DNA of 64,000 nt, from positions 32,001 through 96,000 of the IMG/VR virus record IMGVR_UViG_3300045988_025287. One strand, 5' to 3'. The notes below the pieces were generated by a model. It was given only the letters and a program-made list of their open reading frames with translations, made no database searches and had not been told where the DNA came from. How positions within the stretch are numbered: the first letter of the stretch is position 1; each line of letters opens with the position of its first letter. Of this stretch, positions 6,188 to 26,973 are shown piece by piece. Made by a program: the position numbers and the translations under genes. This stretch comes from a virus.

Positions 6188-6907
6188 TTATTTAACGCTA
6201 TTAAGTTCAATGTTTTTAACATTCATTAATGATTTTAACTCATCAGCTAACTTCTTAGCATCTGGATGAGCTGCACCACTACCCCCATCATTTAATTTCC
6301 ATTTCCATATAAACCCTTTATCTGTTTTTCTGTATCCATTGCAACATTCGCTTATATGCCGTGCCCCAGTTATACGCTGAGCTTCATTTAGACCGAAATA
6401 TTCAGATATAAAATTACCATGTTTATCAAACTATAACACAGGTTTACTTCGCTTCATCTTAGAAGATTTTGTTCTATGTTTCCCTTTATTTTTGCTAACG
6501 CGCTTTTCTATTGTTTCTTTTGTTTGTTTTAAACCCATGTGTGATAATTTCATACGTTCAATTTGTTCAGGCGTAAAATTAATGCCAGAAACCCCCTCAC
6601 CACCGTCAGTGATGTTGTATGATTTGTGTTCCTTTTTGTATAGTTTTATATATAGTTTTTCATATTCACAAGCCTATTTTTTAGTCAATCCTGCATGTAA
6701 TATTTCATGTATTATATTATTCCACCCGTATTTTAGTATCGCTGGGGCAAACGCGGGATGTTTCCAATTACCATTTTTCAATTTTATAACATAATTGCAT
6801 CCATCCTAACCCCAGCGTTTAATCGGATTCTATCTAGTTATACCTATATAACATTTTCCACTCGGAGACGTATGTTTATACACGCAATACTAATTATTTT
6901 TCGTCAT
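6188..6907 (-). CDS. GIY-YIG homing endonuclease (239 aa) with five in-frame TAG
   Basis: ATG at 6905-6907 overlaps the thyX 3' end. TAG at 6890, 6830, 6806, 6674 and 6431, TAA at 6188-6190. Motifs: YCVYKHTSPSGKCYIGIT, ...KRW..., NUMOD3-like TPEQIERMKLSHMGLKQTKETIEKR, and an IENR1-like C-terminus ISECCNGYRKTDKGFIWKW. Confidence 0.8.
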
Positions 6908-7981: not shown

Positions 7982-8425
7982 CTATTTCTTTTTAGTAGTT
8001 TTTCTTATATATGTAATAAATCTTATATGTGGGACTCCTAGTTTAGATAGCTTCTTATATGTAACATAAACTGAAGATGTACAGTTTAACAAGTTATATG
8101 AATACTTAAACATATTAACCATGCATACTGTTATTTGTTTATTTTCTGATAGTCTAGTAATAGATAAGTGACGCTGTTTAAATCTAAACATGAAGTGGTA
8201 AGTACTATGAATTATATTTTCTACTTGTTTTGTATTAGTATTATATACCCAGTAGTGAACTCCATTCCAGTTATATTGACTAGCTATTAATATATACGTA
8301 ACACCTTTAGTACGCACTTTTAATACTAAAAACTTAGTATTATCAATCTGTATTTCTTGTTGCCTATTTAGATTATCTATCATAGGCTCAACATGTTCTA
8401 TATAATAATCTATGCTATGTTTCAT
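7982..8425 (-). CDS. Hypothetical protein (147 aa), first gene of the minus-strand block
   Basis: Intact ORF adjacent to the divergent intergenic region. Confidence 0.7.
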   Translation of the reverse strand: MKHSIDYYIEHVEPMIDNLNRQQEIQIDNTKFLVLKVRTKGVTYILIASQYNWNGVHYWVYNTNTKQVENIIHSTYHFMFRFKQRHLSITRLSENKQITVCMVNMFKYSYNLLNCTSSVYVTYKKLSKLGVPHIRFITYIRKTTKKK

Positions 8426-8617
8426 ATTATCTATAACGCAAATATTAAGAATAATTACAGATATTTAACATAAATTAAACATATTTTAAAAATAAAATAT
8501 AAAAAATTTTATAAAAATTTTTTGAGAGAGGTGGTGCGTGTGTGTGAAGTACTACTCCAATTCATCCCCGGCTGTTATTAATCGCGGGAACACCCCCGCC
8601 AATAAAATCAAAGTATT
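8426..8617. promoter_or_regulatory. Divergent intergenic region (strand switch)
   Basis: Very AT-rich stretch 8426-8520 that includes a TTTAACATAAATTAAACA motif at 8464-8481. Followed by a G+C-rich patch GGTGGTGCGTGTGTGTG...CCCCGG...CGCGGGAACACCCCCGCC. Gene orientation diverges here. Confidence 0.4.
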
Positions 8618-8716
8618 ATGAGTTTATCAGATTGTATTTTTATTCCCACAGATGAAGATGAGGAATATGTTGATGCATTAGCTGATGCATTGGAGTATTA
8701 TAGGAGCTATGAGTAA
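8618..8716 (+). CDS. Small acidic protein (32 aa)
   Basis: ATG at 8618, TAA at 8714-8716. Below the track cutoff, hand translated. Confidence 0.35.
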   Translation: MSLSDCIFIPTDEDEEYVDALADALEYYRSYE

Positions 8717-8778
8717 TCATAGCTCTCCTACTCAATTCATTCACAACTGTAATACCATGCACATTAAATATATCAAGA

Positions 8779-8922
8779 TATGAAGTACAGAATTGATGCT
8801 TATTACAAAAGTGGTGCTGTTAAGCAAGGCACAAAGTTATTAGACAATATTGATGAGGCTATTAAGCTTGCATATGCTGTTGCTAAACATTACAAGTGTT
8901 ATACAAGAATAGCCAGAGTTTA
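8779..8922 (+). CDS. Small protein (47 aa)
   Basis: ATG at 8779, TAA at 8920-8922. Followed by the hairpin GCCAGA...TCTGGC. Confidence 0.45.
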
Positions 8923-9004
8923 ATCTGGCTATCTCTTAGTAAACAGTTACAATTCATACTCATCTTAATAGAATTGCATTATTAACCATTTAAATATTTA
9001 ACTT

Positions 9005-9235
9005 ATGTTAACTAAAGTTAAAGAGGTGAGTAAAAGACTCATCACAGGTGGCTTACTTTGTATAGCCATCGGAGTTGTTCAGGGATTTGCTGTACAGATG
9101 TTAGGCTTATCCTCAATGTTCCCTAATCATGTTCAGCTATTTGGTATGCTACTAATGGTAGGTATCACTAGCATATTAATAGGTGCTATTATGCTATTGT
9201 TTATATGGCTAATAAACATGGTTAACAAACTCTAA
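9005..9235 (+). CDS. Small membrane protein (two predicted TM helices)
   Basis: Intact ORF, hydrophobic throughout. Confidence 0.7.
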   Translation: MLTKVKEVSKRLITGGLLCIAIGVVQGFAVQMLGLSSMFPNHVQLFGMLLMVGITSILIGAIMLLFIWLINMVNKL

Positions 9236-9253
9236 GCCACTCTAAATGGTTAT

Positions 9254-9284
9254 AGCGGGGAGTCGTGCACTCCCTGCTTTTATT
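9254..9284 (+). terminator. Rho-independent terminator
   Basis: 9-bp stem AGCGGGGAG/CTCCCTGCT (one G-U pair), 7-nt loop, then TTTATT. Confidence 0.7.
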
Positions 9285-9320
9285 CAGTATCCGGTATTCA
9301 GTATCTGGTATTGAGTACTT
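9281..9320 (+). repeat. 14-bp tandem repeat TATTCAGTATC(C/T)GG, about 2.8 copies
   Basis: Copies at 9281-9294, 9295-9308 and a partial copy at 9309-9320, immediately after the terminator. Confidence 0.8.
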
Positions 9321-9541
9321 ACACCGGCTGCGCACGAACCCCATTCAGCTGCGTCTGCCAAGAATCGGAGGAAAACAGAAAAGTTCTTCCCGCAATATCA
9401 TGTGAGCGTTATATAATGATTACGTTTAGATGTGGTAGTGTATAAAAACCACTCCAGTTTGAGCATACTGTAAAAAGCTCATCATTACTTCACCAAGTAA
9501 TATATAGCCCTTATAGATTATTCACCAAAAAACATATTATC

Positions 9542-10258
9542 ATGGCAAAGTTTCAATTATTAAATCCAGTATTAAGAGTAGTAGGTCAAAAGTATGATGA
9601 AAAAGGCATACCTGTTGGAGAAATCAACAAAAATGTTCAAAATGCAGGTAACAAATACTTGTATTCCCAATTAATCAATCTTGATTGTCCTTGGGAAGGA
9701 ACACAAACCTACACAAGTTTTCAAAAGCCAGTAGTAGCCATATTTGAGCCACTACTAAGCATACAACATGGAGGCATTGGTCAAACAGACCAAGCCATAC
9801 CTGAGATGTTCCAAACTATTGAAGGTTGCTACGTGTCTTGGAAATCACCACAACCATTTTACAAGAAGCACTTGTCTGCACATCCAGCAAATCCAGCTAA
9901 AGGCACACCAGCTATTATGGCGGGAGACATTGTAAAACAAGGAGGAGTTCCAGTAATATACACAGAATTAGTTGTATTCTGTCAGTATTACTATGACAGT
10001 CGTGGAGAAAAGCAATGGATGAGAGGAAGCACTCCTGAAGAAGTCGGAAGAGCAGCATTCAGTAATTACTGTATTCCAGCTAACGACACTCGTGCATTAG
10101 CAGCAGAACAACCTCAACAGCAGGAAACAGTTGGAGGACAAACTATCAACACAGTTAATCCTAACCAACAACCTCAACAACAAGCTCAGCCTCAACAAGC
10201 TCAACCACAGTTTGTACAAGGCCCAGCTCAACAACAAGGTGCCGCATTTGGCGCGTAA
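9542..10258 (+). CDS. Hypothetical protein with Gln/Pro-rich C-terminal tail
   Basis: Intact 238-aa ORF. C-terminus is QPQQQ...NQQPQQQAQPQQAQPQ.... Confidence 0.8.
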   Translation: MAKFQLLNPVLRVVGQKYDEKGIPVGEINKNVQNAGNKYLYSQLINLDCPWEGTQTYTSFQKPVVAIFEPLLSIQHGGIGQTDQAIPEMFQTIEGCYVSWKSPQPFYKKHLSAHPANPAKGTPAIMAGDIVKQGGVPVIYTELVVFCQYYYDSRGEKQWMRGSTPEEVGRAAFSNYCIPANDTRALAAEQPQQQETVGGQTINTVNPNQQPQQQAQPQQAQPQFVQGPAQQQGAAFGA

Positions 10259-10267
10259 CCACTAATT

Positions 10268-10308
10268 AGAACAAGAGAATAGCATAGCAAAAATAATGCG
10301 CTTGTTCT
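10268..10308 (+). repeat. Conserved hairpin element, copy 1 (AGAACAAG-AGAATAG..TAATGCG-CTTGTTCT)
   Basis: 8-bp stem 10268-10275/10301-10308. The loop starts AGAATAGCATAGCA and ends TAATGCG. Homologous to 11177-11270, with compensatory stem changes. Confidence 0.7.
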
Positions 10309-10532
10309 ATAAATAAAAAAACTCAATAACTTCGGAGTAGCGTAAGCTACGGAGTTGTGTAACAATCCCAAGACATTGAGGGCACCAGTTTCTTATTCAT
10401 TTTACTAAACATAATTGTAATCTAAACTACTATAGGGATACTCCTTGGGAGGATAATTATATGACAGAGGAAGTAGTAGAATAAGTTTTAGGTGTAAAAT
10501 GCAATTTAATCATTAACTAAATAAATAATCAT

Positions 10533-10616
10533 ATGGACAGAGATACAAGATTAGGTATGTTATCAGTAATAATCACAATGATAGTATTATATCTATCTAT
10601 ATGGTTATTTAACTAA
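10533..10616 (+). CDS. Small hydrophobic peptide (27 aa)
   Basis: ATG at 10533, TAA at 10614-10616. Its upstream context CATTAACTAAATAAATAATCAT resembles the one before gene 11310. Confidence 0.35.
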   Translation: MDRDTRLGMLSVIITMIVLYLSIWLFN

Positions 10617-11176
10617 GATATACAGATTTATTCGCAAAGTAATTATTCTATGAAATGCAAATTATCCTCATATGTTGTGAAACATAGTTTAACCACGTTA
10701 AAGTATAATAATATAAGTTAGGTATGCCCTTATAAAGACTTAGGTAGCGCTAAGGACTATATTATTATACTTCTCTTCTTAATGCAACTACATCTCTCGT
10801 AAGCAATAACCGTGACAAGTCGGGGAGAGAACACATTTGAGTTTATGTGTCAAGAATGCAGAGTCAAGAATACTATATGAAACCTACTGGAGATAGGTAA
10901 TGCACAACCGTCAAGAGTGTAAGGAAGTATAGTATAATCCACGTGGTAGATGCAGTTGTAGGTTCCAACTGGTGCACATCTTTTAGAGACAGTAACCAAG
11001 CTCGAAGTAAGCAGAGCGAAGACAATTAGCTATACCTCGATAGGCTTAATGAGGTGCTTAACAGTCTGACACTAACTGAACAATAAGTGTCTGTTCATCC
11101 TCAAAGAGGAAAATGTTGAACTCTACAGACATGTAGACAGCTCCATTAACTCTAGCTGTAACAAAGAGTTATTAAT
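10617..11176 (+). ncRNA. ORF-free G+C-rich island D
   Basis: About 560 nt with no ORF in the track, visibly G+C-richer than coding DNA. Bracketed by the two homologous hairpins. Confidence 0.3.
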
Positions 11177-11270
11177 AGAGTAAGAGAATAGAAACGTGTA
11201 TATCTACGTAGTTCATAGCATAGCTTATAGTCGTATAACACAACATCGATTATATTAATGCGCTTACTCT
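11177..11270 (+). repeat. Conserved hairpin element, copy 2 (AGAGTAAG-AGAATAG..TAATGCG-CTTACTCT)
   Basis: 8-bp stem 11177-11184/11263-11270, followed by ATTATTTTTATT (terminator-like). Stem differs from copy 1 at two base pairs, both compensated. Confidence 0.7.
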
Positions 11271-11309
11271 ATTATTTTTATTGCATTAACTAACAAATAA
11301 ATCAATTAT

Positions 11310-11540
11310 ATGGAAACAAAAGTAATATTAGCTACATTTTACGTAATATTAGGCATATATAGTATGATAGTTTATTTAAGATACGGCTATAAAAAATATG
11401 AGGTGCTAACAGTAGCAGACATATTAGTATCTCTATTGATTATAGTTGGATGGCCGCTTCCATTACTAATGTTATTAGTCCATCATTTTCTACTTTTTAT
11501 ATGTAAACTTGAGGAAATTGTAATACTAAGAAAGAAATAA
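11310..11540 (+). CDS. Small membrane protein
   Basis: Intact ORF, two hydrophobic segments. Confidence 0.7.
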   Translation: METKVILATFYVILGIYSMIVYLRYGYKKYEVLTVADILVSLLIIVGWPLPLLMLLVHHFLLFICKLEEIVILRKK

Positions 11541-11560
11541 TTAATAAATAATATCAAATT

Positions 11561-11989
11561 ATGAAGAAAATAACTTGTATTCAGAATTATGTAATAGATA
11601 AGCTTATTGAAGACAAGAAATTGTCTACAAATAGTCTATTAGATGCAGTTTCTAAAGTATGTTCAAAGGAACAGTTTGATAATATACTGTCTATTCTTAT
11701 AGAAACACCTATTCCTTGTACAAATATGCCTGAATTAGAAAGCAAAACAAACTTAGTAAGAATGAGTATGTTTATATCTGAAGAAGCTGGCAATGAAACT
11801 AAATTGAGGATAATAAAAATACTAATGAACCAATTTGGTCTTGGTCTTAAACAAACTAAAGAATATGTAAATAGTTGTATAGGAAAATATAATATATTAC
11901 CTAAAGCTGTTATGCAAGCAGAAATAGATGAAGTTACAGAAAAATTAGAACCTTACAATGTAATTGTATCTACAGCAGGGTTTTATTAA
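11561..11989 (+). CDS. Protein with ribosomal L7/L12 C-terminal-domain-like region
   Basis: KLRIIKILMNQFGLGLKQTKEYVNS...AEIDEVTEKLEPYNVIV parallels E. coli L7/L12 [25 protein letters not shown]...AEALKKALEEAGAEVEV (recalled, not aligned by software). Confidence 0.55.
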   Translation: MKKITCIQNYVIDKLIEDKKLSTNSLLDAVSKVCSKEQFDNILSILIETPIPCTNMPELESKTNLVRMSMFISEEAGNETKLRIIKILMNQFGLGLKQTKEYVNSCIGKYNILPKAVMQAEIDEVTEKLEPYNVIVSTAGFY

Positions 11990-12493
11990 TAAGTTAATGC
12001 AGTAAATATTACTGCATCTTTAAGGTGAGAATCCTTAACAATCCTGTGGGGCTTATATCTCGTGTTTATAGTAGTGGTGTCACGAGTATTAGTGCAGACG
12101 TTAAAATCAGGAACAACTATATTAGACGGCAATATTACCTTCTTCCAGTCGCAAATGTCATATAGTTTAATATAGCCAAGTTCGTTCGTCCTTAGATTTA
12201 TGGTATTAGCCATTTGTTTATTTAATCATCGTTTCATTCTTAATTGTACAGATTGATTAATTAAGCATAACAGTAAGCGTACTGTTGTCAGTATATTTAT
12301 ATGTGAATATAGATATACTGATTGCACTCATTAAGGTAGCCTTCATGTGGCGAGTGTGTTAAGTAATAGGTCTAAAGAATCTTCCAGTTTGTACCTATGA
12401 AAACTAATACCTTTAACCGCCAGCTCACGCGGTATATAAGACAGGATTGCCGGACCCGCAGGTGTAACGAGATAAATACCTGCATTTTTTATT
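11990..12493 (+). ncRNA. ORF-free G+C-rich island E
   Basis: Starts with an 8-bp hairpin ATGCAGTA/TACTGCAT. Contains GTGCAGACGTTAAAATCA (12092-12109), shared with island F. Ends in the terminator at 12458-12493. The only ORF (minus strand, 11986..12213) is doubtful. Confidence 0.35.
12458..12493 (+). terminator. Rho-independent terminator
   Basis: Stem GCAGGT/ACCTGC (12458-12463/12478-12483), 14-nt loop, then ATTTTTTATT. Confidence 0.65.
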
Positions 12494-12531
12494 AACCTTA
12501 ATAATTATCAAGTTGTAAACTTTAATTTAAT

Positions 12532-12614
12532 GCCCAGATGGCGAAATAGGTAGACGCTAAGGTCTTAAACACCTTTGACCATTGGTCGTGCGGGTTCGAC
12601 TCCCGCTCTGGGTA
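12532..12614 (+). tRNA. tRNA-Leu (anticodon UAA), class II
   Basis: Cloverleaf by hand. Acceptor GCCCAGA/TCTGGGT, anticodon stem AAGGT/ACCTT with loop CTTAAAC, variable arm GACC-ATT-GGTC, T arm GCGGG-TTCGACT-CCCGC. Confidence 0.9.
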
Positions 12615-12643
12615 CAATTAGTAATTAACATTAAAATCTATTT

Positions 12644-12949
12644 ATGATAAAAGTAATTAAATATTATGAACTAAATCGAATTAGTAGAATATTAGTAATA
12701 GCAATAATAACATATATTGTTGGTATTCTAATTAAAAGAGAATACGAAGAGTCCAAAACTGTATATAATTTTGTAGATTTACAAATGAAGTACAAGAATT
12801 ATATATTAGTCAATAAAGAGAGAAGTATTACTAATGATGAAGAATATAAGTTCACATTACGTAATCCTATTACAAACCAAAATAGTACTGTATATGTAAA
12901 GTACTATCTATATCATCACGTATATTTTGTTGGAGATACTATAAAGTAA
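12644..12949 (+). CDS. Hypothetical protein with N-terminal TM segment
   Basis: Intact ORF. Confidence 0.7.
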   Translation: MIKVIKYYELNRISRILVIAIITYIVGILIKREYEESKTVYNFVDLQMKYKNYILVNKERSITNDEEYKFTLRNPITNQNSTVYVKYYLYHHVYFVGDTIK

Positions 12950-12968
12950 CATTTTAATCAATAAAAGT

Positions 12969-13337
12969 ATGAAAAGAGAAGAAATTAAATCTTACAAAGA
13001 CGCTTGTAGAGTAATAGGTAGAAAACCTAGAACTTATAAAGATAAGCATTTGAATCTGTATGAACAGCTTAGTGCAATTATAGCTGCTCTGAATTTCATT
13101 AGTAATGATAATAAACCTTGGACACCTAAGTTCGATTATTATTACATCTATTCTTGGTTATACAGAAAAGATGGATATAATAAATCTGCGGGTTTGTTCT
13201 ATTTGGCTTCTTACGCTGGGTTGGGCGCTTCCGGTGCTCTTGTCGGGACTTCTCTGAAAATAAAAGAGAGAGAAGATGGAAATTACATAATAGAAAACTT
13301 TAAAGAACTACTCCAAGATTGGTTTTGGGGAGATTAA
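12969..13337 (+). CDS. Hypothetical protein (122 aa)
   Basis: Intact ORF. Confidence 0.7.
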   Translation: MKREEIKSYKDACRVIGRKPRTYKDKHLNLYEQLSAIIAALNFISNDNKPWTPKFDYYYIYSWLYRKDGYNKSAGLFYLASYAGLGASGALVGTSLKIKEREDGNYIIENFKELLQDWFWGD

Positions 13338-13362
13338 TTACTAATTTTAAAACATTATCAAA

Positions 13363-13821
13363 ATGGAAAATGAAATGATGGCGAGACCCGAACCGCCAAG
13401 AAGAACTGTTTGGGTAATAGTAGCAATCATTGCCTTAATAGGCATGTTTGGAGCAATGATTTACGCAGAGCGTGAAAACATTGCCAATTTCTTAAATGGT
13501 GTGAACCAAGAAGAAATACAAGAAGATCCTCAAGTTATCATTGAGGAACCTGTAACAACAATACAGGATATTCTCGACATGAGAGAGCAAATGAGAGAAG
13601 ATAGAAGAGTTGATAGTGTATTTTTAGCTATGCCAAAGGTAGTATTAATTGATATTTTGATGCAGCATGGTACGTCATTGTCTATAAAAGACATAATTTA
13701 CATATATGAATCAAACACATCAACGTACAACACAGTATTATCTGGGGCAAGAGCTCAAAAATATCTTGATGACTCTATACAAACTCATGTTATATCAACT
13801 GTTGTAAACGACTCTATTTAA
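13363..13821 (+). CDS. Hypothetical protein with one TM segment
   Basis: Intact ORF. Confidence 0.7.
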   Translation: MENEMMARPEPPRRTVWVIVAIIALIGMFGAMIYAERENIANFLNGVNQEEIQEDPQVIIEEPVTTIQDILDMREQMREDRRVDSVFLAMPKVVLIDILMQHGTSLSIKDIIYIYESNTSTYNTVLSGARAQKYLDDSIQTHVISTVVNDSI

Positions 13822-14211
13822 GACTAGACCTTCTTTTTAGTTAATATTAGAGTCTAGTATACTCAGTCTGTGAAGATAGAGTATACGTCCTCAGAAAATG
13901 ACAAACATGTGGGGCGGGAGTAAATAAGTAAAACTAAGCAGTAGTATTATATATCAGTAAGGATACTACGCCGAATCTGATTGTTTTGTTTATTTATAGT
14001 CGTGCGGACGTTAAAATCATGTACTCCAATAAGATTTAGTTTGACAGCTATTTCTGCTTACGAGTTAAAACTATAGTGAGAGTCATAGTAAGTAACGATT
14101 GTAGTCGTTTATCTTTGTCTTATAACAAATGCTATAAACTAAGTTGGCACTAACTTAATTAAATCCTGAGTGCCCAGGCGTCATTATTAACAATTTAAAT
14201 TTTTTAGAAAC
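13822..14211. ncRNA. ORF-free G+C-rich island F
   Basis: Starts with a 7-bp helix ACTAGAC/GTCTAGT. Contains GTGCGGACGTTAAAATCA (14002-14019), 17/18 identical to island E. Confidence 0.35.
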
Positions 14212-14442
14212 ATGAAAAAGATTGGAGATTTTTTATTTGTAGAGCAATGCTTTACAGATACTGAAGAAACAAAAACTGCGGTAGTCAATATTAATTATAT
14301 TGACAGCATAACTCAGAGCTGCAATGACAAACTTGGAGACATTGTAGTCATAGAGACAGATAATACAAGAATTATCTGTAAAGATCCAGAGAATTTCTTT
14401 ACTGAGTTTGAGAATCTAATTTCAGATGAAGAAGAATGGTAG
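14212..14442 (+). CDS. Hypothetical acidic protein (76 aa)
   Basis: Intact ORF. Ends in TAG (14440) with an in-frame TAA three codons later (14452). Confidence 0.6.
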   Translation: MKKIGDFLFVEQCFTDTEETKTAVVNINYIDSITQSCNDKLGDIVVIETDNTRIICKDPENFFTEFENLISDEEEW

Positions 14443-14699
14443 TCAATAAAGTAAAAGAGGGCCGTAAATTAACTGAAATAAAGTTCAGTAACGACCACTA
14501 TCTCGCAAATCTATTAGCTACTACTAAAGTACTTGGCATATCGTTAGAACGAGCTAAAAAGCTATGTAGAACAGTACCAGGTAAGAGAGTAGAAGTTAAT
14601 CCACCTATTGAAATTATCAGTAAGTTAAATACTGATAAATTATTTGAAGAATTAGAGGAGTATGAAATAGAAGTATCTATTAGTATTCCCAGTAAATAA
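14436..14699 (+). CDS. Hypothetical protein, second L7/L12-CTD-like candidate
   Basis: KVLGISLERAKKLCRTVPGK...DKLFEELEEYEIEVSI follows the same pattern as the L7/L12 C-terminal domain. Weaker than 11561..11989. Confidence 0.5.
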   Translation: MVVNKVKEGRKLTEIKFSNDHYLANLLATTKVLGISLERAKKLCRTVPGKRVEVNPPIEIISKLNTDKLFEELEEYEIEVSISIPSK

Positions 14700-14716
14700 C
14701 TTATCAAAAGTAAAAC

Positions 14717-15184
14717 ATGAAAGCAATTGTTATTTCATTTGAAGGAGCTATAAAAGACGATAATATCTTTGCATCATTATTAGCTTCTTTTGTAGAGAAA
14801 CATGTAAACACTGAATCTGTAAATATCCATATTTTATCAGATATAGATGTAACAAATGCGCTAATAGCTAAGTGCTTAATTCCATCTGCTATAACAGTAG
14901 ACAGACCATCTAATCCGCAAATACCAGTAGTAGAAGATTTCTGTAAGAAGATTGTTTCATCTATTGGTTCACCCGCACTTAAAACACGAGAATTGTTAAA
15001 CTCAGAACTATGCAAGTTCTTAGTACAACAAAATCGTGAAGTTATTAGTGTTCCAGTAAGTATTATTGCTAAAGTAAATACTACTTCTGCGTATTACGAA
15101 CATCGCAAGGTACTAAAGGAATACGGTTTATCTGCATTACCTGAGTTATTACGCGATATTAACCCTCTATTTAAATTTTACTAG
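14717..15184 (+). CDS. Hypothetical protein (155 aa)
   Basis: Intact ORF in the co-directional block. Ends in TAG (15182) with a backup TAA at 15200. The antisense ORF 14704..15015 was rejected. Confidence 0.65.
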   Translation: MKAIVISFEGAIKDDNIFASLLASFVEKHVNTESVNIHILSDIDVTNALIAKCLIPSAITVDRPSNPQIPVVEDFCKKIVSSIGSPALKTRELLNSELCKFLVQQNREVISVPVSIIAKVNTTSAYYEHRKVLKEYGLSALPELLRDINPLFKFY

Positions 15185-15185
15185 T

Positions 15186-15284
15186 ATGGCAAAGAAGAAT
15201 AATGAAGAGCCTCCAAAGGAATTTAAAAAGAAGCCAAAACATAAAAAGATGGAGCCCTATAATCGTAAGAAAGCATGGAAATAG
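15186..15284 (+). CDS. Small Lys-rich peptide (32 aa)
   Basis: Hand translated: MAKKNNEEPPKEFKKKPKHKKMEPYNRKKAWK. Ends in TAG. Confidence 0.35.
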   Translation: MAKKNNEEPPKEFKKKPKHKKMEPYNRKKAWK

Positions 15285-15421
15285 ATAATAATTGTCCTAC
15301 ACTTGATAATCATATCAACTGTAGTGAATGTACTCATGAGTGTAAACTCAGAATGCAACCAAAGAATAGTAAAGAAGTAGAGGTTCCGCCAGAGCCTCTA
15401 CTTAATACTATATATTACTAA
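15275..15421 (+). CDS. Small Cys-containing protein (48 aa)
   Basis: Hand translated. CPTLDNHINCSECTHEC cluster. TAA at 15419-15421. Confidence 0.4.
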   Translation: MEIDNNCPTLDNHINCSECTHECKLRMQPKNSKEVEVPPEPLLNTIYY

Positions 15422-15460
15422 TTTAAATTGTTAGTAAAATGGTGGATTCAGTCAACCCAA

Positions 15461-15610
15461 AGAACTGTTTAAGACTAGAACCCTAATGGAAATTGTCAAT
15501 CAAGAGTACAATGGACTATACAACGGTCAACCACATTATATGTAGGTCAGGAGAAGGCAGGGAGTCTCCTGTTGAATAAGAAGTACAAATAGACAGGAAC
15601 AGTTCTTTTT
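15461..15610 (+). ncRNA. Structured element G, closed by a 9-bp long-range helix plus U-run
   Basis: AGAACTGTT (15461-15469) pairs with AACAGTTCT (15598-15606), followed by TTTTT. Internal 7-bp hairpin CAGGAGA/TCTCCTG (15548-15554/15565-15571). Confidence 0.4.
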
Positions 15611-15663
15611 AATTATTACTTAAATTTACTAAAAGATATGAGTAAAACAAAAAACAAATTAAA

Positions 15664-15891
15664 ATGTCATATTATATGACCAATATAATTATTACTCCTA
15701 CTTTATATGAGGAGAAAAGATTAGAAGCTATATCATACTTTAGCAGATGTAGTAGAGAAGCAGCACTAAGAATCCACAAAAAGAACAAATATAAAGATAT
15801 TAAATTGAAGCTAAACACTATAGCAGTAGCTATAATCGAGGCTAAAAAGAGATATTTTGATGATTGTTCTTTTATTAAGATTATATTATAG
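15664..15891 (+). CDS. Hypothetical protein (75 aa)
   Basis: Intact ORF. TAG stop with a TAA one codon later. Confidence 0.55.
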   Translation: MSYYMTNIIITPTLYEEKRLEAISYFSRCSREAALRIHKKNKYKDIKLKLNTIAVAIIEAKKRYFDDCSFIKIIL

Positions 15892-15935
15892 TGTTAAATA
15901 AATTTTATTGTTAAATCAATTAAACTGTATTCAAA

Positions 15936-16403
15936 ATGGCAGAAGTAAAGAAAATGAACATCCTTATAGAGGATGTAAATGGAGAAAACATCCAGGATGT
16001 AATCGCTAATTCAAGTAAGGTAACTGAAGAAATTGCAGAAGAAGCAGCAAAGAAAATTGCTGAACGACGCAAAGAAAAGTTAACGAAAGATTTAGTAGCT
16101 GTTGTTCAGAAGAGCGAATATACGGTATCCTCAGCGGTACTACAAGTTCGTCGTTCTAACAGAACAAACCAACGTATTAAACAGTACCTAAAAGATCTTG
16201 CTACACTGAAAGAAGAGATTGTAAGTGGAAAGAAACCTGTATCTGCATGGAAAGAGGAAGCTTATAATCTAAAGAAACAGTACGACAAGGATCTTATTGA
16301 GATTGGAAAGGATATCGACAAGTCCTTAAATGAACTTAACGAACTCTTTCCAGACTCTTGGCAGTGGAGATACGATGATTTAGTTCCTAATACTAATAGA
16401 TAA
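15936..16403 (+). CDS. Hypothetical coiled-coil-like protein (155 aa)
   Basis: Intact ORF, charged heptad-like composition. Confidence 0.75.
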   Translation: MAEVKKMNILIEDVNGENIQDVIANSSKVTEEIAEEAAKKIAERRKEKLTKDLVAVVQKSEYTVSSAVLQVRRSNRTNQRIKQYLKDLATLKEEIVSGKKPVSAWKEEAYNLKKQYDKDLIEIGKDIDKSLNELNELFPDSWQWRYDDLVPNTNR

Positions 16404-17048
16404 CTAAATCAAAACAAATAAAAGAGGTTCCAAGCTTAGAATCTTTGAATCAATAGCTTAGTATGTGAGTCGGAAATAGTTCTTTTGAACTCTAGGGCCT
16501 GAGGCATACAAGGACCTGAATTAACAGGTCTCATACAGAATTTTAAATCAGTTATGGGGAACTACCGTGAACTACTGATCATAAGTCTGAGATCGCGACA
16601 ATAAGATTGTCCTCTAGAAATAGAGAAACGCTCTAGTCGTGACATCAAGTTTAGACTGAATAATATGAATCTTTGAATCGTTTAAAGTATCTATACTTTA
16701 ACTATTATTCGTGTATTATCAAGATCAGTATAAGAGAACTAACCATTCTCAAGACCATAGGGTATATGACTTTGGTCGGTCATATACCCACAATAGAGTA
16801 GGTATAATACCGAACTGTAAAAAGAATTGACTGTTAGGTCTATTTATGCCTTCAGGTGACCGCGGGGCAGTACCGCGCACATCCACTAAAAAAATATAAT
16901 AAGGGTGTGAAATAGTATTGAACCGTTGAAACAGAATAGAATAGGTCAATAAGCAGATAACTGGCAATACAAGTTATGTAACGGACTATACTGGTATCGC
17001 AGCGTGATAACAGAGTCCAACGGCTAAGCTAATGTCGTAGAAAGCTGG
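16404..17048 (+). ncRNA. ORF-free G+C-rich island H
   Basis: About 645 nt. 13-nt exact direct repeat GAATCTTTGAATC at 16439-16451 and 16667-16679. GC hairpin CGCGG-GGCAGTA-CCGCG near 16862-16880. Ends at a tRNA-like module. Confidence 0.35.
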
Positions 17049-17128
17049 AGTAAGGATAGTACTCAGATGGTAGAGCGGTGAGATAATATCAAAAGCTGGT
17101 ATCGGAGGTTCGAGTCCTCCCCTTACTA
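17049..17128 (+). ncRNA. tRNA-like element without a canonical anticodon arm
   Basis: 7-bp acceptor AGTAAGG/CCTTACT. D-arm-like GTAC-TCAGATGGTA-GAGC. Perfect T arm GGAGG-TTCGAGT-CCTCC. I could not fold the 27 nt between the D and T arms into a 5-bp stem with a 7-nt loop. Confidence 0.5.
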
Positions 17129-17167
17129 CAAATAAAAAATTAAGTTTAATCAATAAATTAATTTGAA

Positions 17168-17446
17168 ATGGGATTAATGAATTTTATTAGACAGAATCTT
17201 CCAGAATCATGGGAGAAAGCTGCAACAGAGATGAGAATGAAGACTGAATTAATAACTCGTCTTCATAATGTAGTACCTCGTGCTTATAAGAATAAGTATC
17301 ACTACAAAGAAGGAATATCTTATATTAGAAGAGTATTCAATACTAAATGTGATATAATACATTTAGTAGATGCTACTGATATAGATATCACTAAATGGAA
17401 TGAATTAAGTAGTAAAATAAAAGAATACGAATATCAATGCGTGTAA
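17168..17446 (+). CDS. Hypothetical protein (92 aa)
   Basis: Intact ORF. Confidence 0.7.
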   Translation: MGLMNFIRQNLPESWEKAATEMRMKTELITRLHNVVPRAYKNKYHYKEGISYIRRVFNTKCDIIHLVDATDIDITKWNELSSKIKEYEYQCV

Positions 17447-17622
17447 GATATTTTGCTTGGTTTGACTCTAAACATGAAAGAACAGAGTTCATTAACTTAC
17501 TCAGATCAGCTAAATCTGATATTGATGCAGTTAATAAAGTGATGCAAAAATATCCAGAGTTAACTTTATCAGAAGTATCTGGAATAGTAAATAACTTTAA
17601 AAAAGAAATTAATCAACCATGA
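17437..17622 (+). CDS. Hypothetical protein (61 aa)
   Basis: Intact ORF. TGA stop overlaps the next ATG (ATGA). Confidence 0.6.
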   Translation: MRVRYFAWFDSKHERTEFINLLRSAKSDIDAVNKVMQKYPELTLSEVSGIVNNFKKEINQP

Positions 17623-26880: not shown

Positions 26881-26951
26881 TCTCATGTAGCTCAGTGGTA
26901 GAGCCGCTACTATGTAGTGTGAACGCGTTGGTTCGAGTCCAACCATGAGAT
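26881..26951 (+). ncRNA. tRNA-like element with aberrant anticodon arm (loop contains CUA)
   Basis: Good acceptor TCTCATG/CATGAGA, D arm GCTC-AGTGGTA-GAGC and T arm GTTGG-TTCGAGT-CCAAC. The anticodon region CGCTA-CTATG-TAGTG gives a 5-nt loop, or a 7-nt loop ACUAUGU with C at position 33. Confidence 0.5.
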
Positions 26952-26973
26952 CTAACTTTTAAATACTTATAAT

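Follow-up and report, generated by a model that had tools for sequence, protein, structure and literature searches.

The window, i.e., the whole 64,000-nt stretch of viral DNA analyzed here, is from a crAss-like phage of the family Suoliviridae whose late genes are TAG-recoded. A BLAST search against GenBank phages returned cr114_1, cr115_1, cr53_1 and cr4_1, all of them Suoliviridae (Crassvirales) of human faecal origin, and these records carry no annotation at the positions of the hairpins described below. Under the standard code, the minus strand between 37799 and 63022 contains no stop-free stretch of at least 500 codons. When TAG is read as a sense codon, the same region has open stretches of 1564, 4175, 662, 615 and 1413 codons, which means that TAG is recoded in the late genes. 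In the early region on the plus strand (8-37 kb), the standard code applies. ARAGORN called a tRNA-His at 26881-26952 with anticodon ATG at position 32, unusual in both anticodon and position, which may be a mis-call or an odd tRNA of a recoded phage.

In the early region, two hairpins enclose 868 nt, and the neighboring genes and RNAs are all on the plus strand (Table 1). Copy 1 starts 9 nt past the TAA stop of a gene for a 238-aa protein, for which no Pfam or PHROG match was found; the adjacent proteins that were scanned gave PHROG or Pfam results without informative function. A 142-aa protein (11561-11989) scored 23.3 bits against the ribosomal L7/L12 C-terminal domain (PF00542), below the cutoff of 25.9. 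The enclosed stretch, which the initial annotation of the sequence had described as holding only a 27-codon open reading frame (ORF), was found to contain RAGATH-6 and RAGATH-7 as well. The wider plus-strand region also has a tRNA-Leu, and weak sub-threshold matches to RAGATH-20 and RAGATH-22 occur on the same strand at 16358-16594.

Table 1. Position and basis of the features at and around the two hairpins (window coordinates)
Feature	Position	Strand	Basis or remark
238-aa gene, Q/P-rich tail	9542-10258	+	copy 1 after its stop codon
Copy 1, minimal S form	10267-10309 (blocks 10268-10308)	+	sequence, folding, covariance-model match
Copy 1 P1	10267-10275 with 10301-10309	+	
Copy 1 bulge AGAAUA	10276-10281	+	
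Copy 1 P3	GCAU 10282-10285 with AUGC 10296-10299	+	
Copy 1 loop	10286-10295	+	
Copy 1 bulged G	10300	+	
Module A, CUCAAU...AUUGAG stem, optional 34-nt inner hairpin	10312-10396	+	high conservation, unannotated
27-codon hydrophobic ORF MDRDTRLGMLSVIITMIVLYLSIWLFN	10533-10616	+	conserved in relatives
RAGATH-6 RNA (RF02686)	10625-10775	+	Rfam, 176.3 bits vs. gathering score 170
RAGATH-7 RNA (RF03159)	10870-11092	+	Rfam, 174.4 bits vs. gathering score 111.8
Copy 2, extended L form, three-way junction	11173-11274 (core 11177-11270)	+	sequence, folding, covariance model
Copy 2 P1, 12 bp including flanks	11173-11184 with 11263-11274	+	
Copy 2 P1 core, 8 bp	11177-11184 with 11263-11270	+	
Copy 2 J1/2 AGAAUA	11185-11190	+	
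Copy 2 P2, loop UAUAUC	11191-11198 with 11205-11209 plus 11212-11214	+	
Copy 2 P3	GCAU 11218-11221 with AUGC 11258-11261	+	
Copy 2 P3b	11226-11233 with 11247-11254	+	
Copy 2 bulged G	11262	+	
U-rich tract ATTATTTTTATT, then conserved leader GCATTAACTAACAAATAAATCAATTAT of the next gene	11271-11309	+	
76-aa membrane protein gene (phrog_14512)	11310-11540	+	downstream
Hatchet ribozyme	12016-12112	+	Rfam
Hatchet ribozyme	13887-14022	+	Rfam
RAGATH-9	15448-15608	+	136 bits
Permuted-tmRNA model match	16826-17007	+	56 bits vs. gathering score 47

Several of the neighboring elements are conserved in their own right. Module A, composed of AAACUCAAUAACUUC, the optional 34-nt hairpin and CCCAAGACAUUGAGGGCACCAGUUUCUUAU, is nearly invariant in dozens of relatives, where it exists in two length forms and in many cases comes after an S copy. 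No Rfam family matched it, and it may be a separate structured RNA. The 27-codon ORF has eight protein variants among relatives, e.g., MDRDTELGMLSVIITMIVLYLSIWLFN, and its leader (GCAATTTAATCATTAACTAAATAAATAATCAT-ATG) resembles that of the 76-aa gene. Upstream of each Hatchet in the window, an ordinary P0 hairpin directly follows an ORF stop codon, with the P0 stem TGCAGTAA/TTACTGCA at 11997-12015 for the first and ATACTC/GAGTAT at about 13860-13885 for the second.

Structure and covariation of the hairpin

Copy 1 reads AGAACAAG-AGAATAGCATAGCAAAAATAATGCG-CTTGTTCT (10268-10308), and copy 2 reads AGAGTAAG-AGAATAG-(22 nt)-CATAGCA-(31 nt)-TAATGCG-CTTACTCT (11177-11270), followed by ATTATTTTTATT. 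The blocks AGAATAG, CATAGCA and TAATGCG are common to both, and the composite three-block pattern did not occur once in 100 dinucleotide shuffles. Each copy alone folds as predicted, with -9.8 kcal/mol (z -3.0) for copy 1 and -26.2 kcal/mol (z -3.6) for copy 2, and copy 2 matches our covariance model R1 with 85.9 bits (E 3.5e-15). These results confirm the initial annotation, in which two homologous hairpins had been described with stems differing at two adjacent, compensated pairs; the changed pairs are numbers 4 and 5 (A-U to G-C and C-G to U-A). Its estimate of about 55 nt of insertions in copy 2 agrees with the 53 extra nt that we counted, and the U-run it had noted after this copy is the U-rich tract directly 3' of it. 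Pattern and covariance-model searches found no third copy of the hairpin within the 64-kb window.

Across the family described below, P1 consists of 8 bp, lengthened to 9-12 bp by the flanks, and stacks on an invariant 4-bp GCAU/AUGC helix, P3. The junction between the two has a single G on the 3' strand and an AGAA-containing bulge on the 5' strand. In extended forms, a P2 hairpin (GAG-GUCU...AGAC-AG-CUC, with many variants) is present at the bulge, and P3 continues via a small internal loop into P3b. Both arms are optional, ranging from absent to more than 50 nt, with minimal forms seen for each P1 allele, and both are wholly replaced between relatives while the unpaired core stays invariant. 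The core AAG-AGAA...UA-GCAU-A...UA-AUGC-G-CUU was identical in 71 distinct family rows. Only three P1 alleles occur, namely S (AGAACAAG/CTTGTTCT), L (AGAGTAAG/CTTACTCT) and K (AAAGTAAG/CTTACTTT), which differ at pairs 2, 4 and 5, every difference being compensated. Judging from these alleles, the sequence of P1 is itself tightly constrained, besides the selection on the helix.

Among the K-type copies, L017 (6003-6155), L145, L163 and L219 have an insertion of about 40 nt in each of the P2 and P3b arms. The insertions are alike (…AAGTAAGATATTTAATATGTCTTATATACCTA…), which suggests that a small repeat has colonized both arms of those copies.

Pairing was assessed in the alignment that was gathered through a RAGATH-7 15-mer and thus independently of the hairpin itself. 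Standard pairs filled 96.2% of the cells of this alignment, as against 26-60% when partners were slid by 1-3 columns, in sequences that are akin to one another and were fitted to the structure of the model. Changes on both sides occurred in 13 of the 24 pairs (three in P1, six in P2 and four in P3b), and none of 500 shuffles reached the observed covariation score. P3 never varies and is therefore uninformative on pairing. That the helix is under selection, as proposed from the two window copies, is supported by the compensated P1 alleles in relatives and by the strong covariation of the optional arms. G.U pairs outnumbered A.C pairs (28 vs. 15), an excess that mildly favors RNA from the plus strand.

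Two structural likenesses of the bulge were considered and rejected. Loop B of the hairpin ribozyme has the strands AGAAACA / GUAUAUUAC; no Rfam hairpin-ribozyme match was obtained here and there is no equivalent of loop A. A kink-turn was dismissed by inspection, since no tandem G.A/A.G lies beside a 3-nt bulge in either orientation.

Distribution and arrangement in related phages

Relatives were collected by three routes: an exact-pattern scan of IMG/VR followed by the covariance model R1, built from 23 distinct long forms; retrieval of loci via the conserved RAGATH-7 15-mer and search of these with R1, which avoids circular ascertainment; and a scan leaving P1 unconstrained. Combined, they gave 92 non-redundant instances of the hairpin (52 L, 16 K and 24 S); the search of relatives that was suggested as a check when the pair was first noticed thus found further copies. 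The motif lies at most 500 nt downstream in 49 of 58 (84%) non-redundant genuine RAGATH-7 loci, sometimes only 4-5 nt from RAGATH-7 or RAGATH-7-assoc. S copies also occur without RAGATH-7, directly after protein-coding genes, and in cr115_1 the same S form is found about 10 nt past a small ORF.

A scan of 185,579 bacterial and archaeal species genomes gave 24 pattern matches, of which 23 lacked P1 pairing and represent chance. The sole true match (L267, 6810-6887) is on a 100,100-bp contig in a Sphaerochaeta sp. metagenome-assembled genome (MAG), and this contig appears from its size and content to be the genome of a crAss-like phage that was binned there. The scan thus doubles as a negative control and supports a restriction of the motif to these phages. 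No Rfam 15 family matched either hairpin in permissive cmscan searches (E up to 10) of 8400-17500 and 10255-11310; this includes RAGATH-7-assoc and the hammerhead, twister, twister-sister, pistol, hatchet, hairpin and HDV-like ribozymes. The only overlaps were noise, from DUF805b (10.8 bits) and Afu_182 (13.7 bits). The hairpin is a conserved and previously uncatalogued RNA stem-loop that is found only in Suoliviridae crAss-like phages.

The proposal that the pair brackets an island extends to other genomes. All 16 non-redundant two-copy loci have an S copy first and, 3' of it on the same strand, an L or K copy; no three-copy locus was found among the gathered loci. The distance between the copies is 586-2175 nt and is filled by variable RNA cargo, consisting of combinations of RAGATH-14, -6, -7, -7-assoc, a tRNA and unannotated modules. 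Within L127-L139, where the island follows position 6714 in each, the 238-aa proteins are 98-99% identical and the cargo is very different; turnover of the island appears very fast relative to that of the genes. L132 has no cargo at all, only a single S-type hairpin followed directly by the same U-rich flank as copy 2 of the window. Homology breakpoints were found at every module boundary (10396, 10481, 10616, 10782, 10935, 11090...), and several lie at 10310-10311.

Traces of partial hairpins were also seen. A half-motif, TGAGTAAGAGAACAAA(T/G)T, resembling the 5' half of the L type, is located directly 5' of an S copy in L086 (11854-11912, minus strand), L152 (3338-3393) and L180 (975-1033), and looks like a scar of rearrangement between copies. 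In L135 (about 6727-6764), the 3' P1 strand of the S copy is replaced by CTAGCTAC, which breaks the hairpin, and the locus diverges from there onward.

The three types differ in the sequence that follows the hairpin. The 52 L copies precede either a Hatchet ribozyme (14) or a U-rich tract (38), and these flanks are mutually exclusive. K copies were followed by a U-rich tract in nine instances and by other sequence in seven, never by a Hatchet or an A-rich tract. For the S type, the flank was A-rich in 13 instances, U-rich in five and other in six, again with no Hatchet. Where a Hatchet follows, its cleavage-site C(-1) is 5 nt past P1 of the hairpin (ATTTC↓T, then Hatchet P1), and in the U-rich L cases the tract leads into the conserved leader of the next gene. 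In the window, a U-tract lies immediately 3' of copy 2 (AUUAUUUUUAUU) and not of copy 1 (AUAAAUAAAAAAA); neither copy abuts a Hatchet, the nearest being the one at 12016. A P0 hairpin without conserved sequence is reported for about 90% of hatchets, immediately 5' of the cleavage site (PMC4604424). There seems to be a local rule by which an RNA unit ends in a hairpin, followed by a Hatchet cut or a U-run, with the conserved motif filling the hairpin slot.

Possible roles of the hairpin

Our leading, if tentative, reading of these sequence data is that the element serves as a 3'-end cap or punctuation hairpin, of which the invariant bulge and GCAU helix would be read by some factor. The hairpins would cap the 3' ends of RNA units derived from a polycistronic transcript of the early region, copy 1 capping the mRNA of the 238-aa gene and copy 2 a non-coding unit ending with RAGATH-7. 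The 3' end of the RNA would form a few nucleotides past P1. In the window, this would be at the U-rich tract; for about one in four relatives, the abutting Hatchet would make the end, with the hairpin replacing the P0 of the ribozyme. Once at the terminus, the hairpin would block 3' exonucleases, and a protein or nuclease probably reads the bulge and the GCAU helix. The structure, the covariation, the positions of the copies and their Hatchet or U-tract neighbors are observed; that the region is transcribed in this way, that 3' ends form there and are shielded from decay, and that a factor binds are inferences.

Having different P1 alleles may confine the 5' and 3' copies to local folding and reduce the length of direct-repeat homology between them. 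The 5' strand of copy 1 and the 3' strand of copy 2 could form six of eight pairs, and the two central mismatches would prevent cross-pairing. Identity of the direct repeats would be cut to 10-nt tracts by the same difference. Long intergenic regions of phi14:2, a crAss-like phage, are the source of early RNAs that are abundant, unusually stable and still present late in infection (bioRxiv 10.1101/2020.03.07.982082), which fits a need for stabilizing ends. The role of the motif is likely a housekeeping one.

The weak point of the cap proposal is copy 1. Most S copies are without a U-run or ribozyme, which leaves the formation of a 3' end after copy 1 unexplained. Conservation also counts against it, since the ordinary P0 and terminator hairpins of these phages are not conserved in sequence. 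The invariance of the AGAA bulge and of the GCAU helix is not accounted for by a pure cap, which makes the factor proposed to read them hypothetical. A further point against the cap is that 39 nt separate copy 2 from the next ATG, leaving little room for a promoter, so that the hairpin must permit read-through.

It is unlikely that the copies are plain intrinsic terminators, a duplicated element without further function whose conservation would reflect recent spread. In favor of this explanation, the 12-bp P1 of copy 2 is followed at once by UUUUUAUU, and the U-rich flanks of 38 L copies and of five S copies, as well as the single copy left between two genes where the island is absent, point the same way. 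The idea that both copies terminate transcription is doubtful for copy 1, given that S types are mostly followed by A-rich sequence, that the stems are AU-rich and that a terminator consensus scan of 9300-12700 gave no sites. With three GC pairs among the eight of P1 and an interior of 25-137 nt, the motif lacks the G+C-rich stem and short loop of an intrinsic terminator. Multi-branched elements of 89-153 nt are atypical of terminators, and the canonical GC-rich terminators of these phages look different (L005, 2740-2775). Furthermore, the unpaired core is invariant where P2 and P3b are replaced, which argues for selection on the core and not for recent spread.

A function in RNA cleavage seems quite unlikely. 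The motif would then be a small self-cleaving ribozyme or a dedicated endoribonuclease site, with the S and L copies acting together to release the RAGATH-6/RAGATH-7 RNA, which might afterwards be ligated or circularized. Such a function would suit a neighborhood with two Hatchets and RAGATH-6, -7 and -9, and a conserved junction core with variable peripheral stems is also what small ribozymes have; the S-then-L/K order in every two-copy locus also speaks for it. On the other hand, Rfam gave no ribozyme match for the 1-kb stretch even at E up to 10, and the common core is tiny, comprising a bulge of 5-6 nt, a 4-bp helix and one G. Self-cleavage would be redundant in the 14 L copies that directly precede a Hatchet. 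Self-cleavers do not typically have a 3' U-tract, as has been argued for other motifs (PMC5737381). The more specific version, in which S and L form a matched pair, as a new minimal self-cleaving motif or as the site of a dedicated nuclease or ligase, that excises the variable RAGATH cargo from the early transcript as a discrete, possibly circular RNA and the P1 alleles mark the left and right ends, is improbable.

Sites acting at the DNA level, i.e., recombination sites of an att or attC-like kind or hairpin promoters that drive gain and loss of cassettes, are very unlikely. They would account for islands that differ or are absent next to 238-aa proteins that are 98-99% identical, for the breakpoints just past copy 1 at 10310-10311, for the single copy at the empty site and for the half-motif remnants beside S copies in L086 and L152. 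Breakpoints were, however, present at every module boundary and not at the hairpins alone, and the hairpins were therefore discarded as sole recombination hot spots. An att model predicts a hybrid right site with an S-type 3' half. In L132, the empty site carries CTTGTTCT, the 3' half of the S type. The L copy ends instead in CTTACTCT, a compensated 3' half that pairs with the 5' half of the same copy; it is thus no hybrid of the S copy, and the attL/attR model was rejected for that reason. No integrase or recombinase was found among the adjacent ORFs scanned, which cover part of the window, and the G.U excess and large variable arms suit RNA better. Promoter hairpins of the N4 type have 5-7 bp and 3-nt loops and are unlike the motif.

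Significance and comparison with known systems

The motif is a phage structured-RNA element of the RAGATH/Hatchet neighborhood, and it is real, conserved and uncatalogued. CrAss-like phages are among the most abundant human gut viruses, with early regions in which structured RNAs that include Hatchet and RAGATH-6, -7, -9 and -14 form clusters as yet unexplained. Our literature search found no paper linking RAGATH RNAs to crAss-like phages. The hairpin family gives the cluster a grammar of fixed left and right markers, between which the cargo changes even in near-identical phages, and the right marker is interchangeable with the P0 of a ribozyme. If the cap or processing role is true, the motif would locate the mature ends of the RAGATH RNAs, which is the first need for functional study. 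It could also enter Rfam and thereby improve phage annotation.

Among known systems, the RNase III hairpins of phage T7 are paralogous, intergenic and contain internal loops; they punctuate the polycistronic early transcript and leave its pieces with a hairpin that protects the 3' end. The motif is likewise a set of paralogous intergenic hairpins with internal loops. A substrate of the T7 type has about two helical turns of near-continuous double-stranded RNA. Stacked on one another, P1, P3 and P3b of the L form could reach about 25 bp, as against about 14 bp for the S form. Differences are this small number of stacked pairs in the S form and the host, which is a member of the Bacteroidales. 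With RAGATH-7 and RAGATH-7-assoc (RF03159 and RF03105), the motif shares the genomic niche and the strand; it falls outside both Rfam models and is matched by neither.

The P0 hairpin of Hatchet ribozymes (Weinberg et al., 2015; Li et al., 2015) resembles the motif in position. It lies a few nucleotides 5' of the cleavage site, as does the motif in 14 of 52 L-type copies, and after cleavage it forms the 3' end of the upstream product. P0 lacks sequence conservation (PMC4604424; Li et al., 2015), whereas the motif has an invariant core, and most copies of the motif are followed by a U-rich or A-rich tract. Rho-independent terminators and 3' stabilizer hairpins resemble the motif as stem-loops ending a gene or RNA unit, and copy 2 is followed by a U-rich run as they are. 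The motif differs from them in its AU-rich stem, its branched long form and its conserved unpaired nucleotides. The nearest functional counterparts of the element are the Hatchet P0 and the terminator-type 3' hairpin, yet it combines this placement with a conserved sequence that P0 does not have and with a stem that is not GC-rich.
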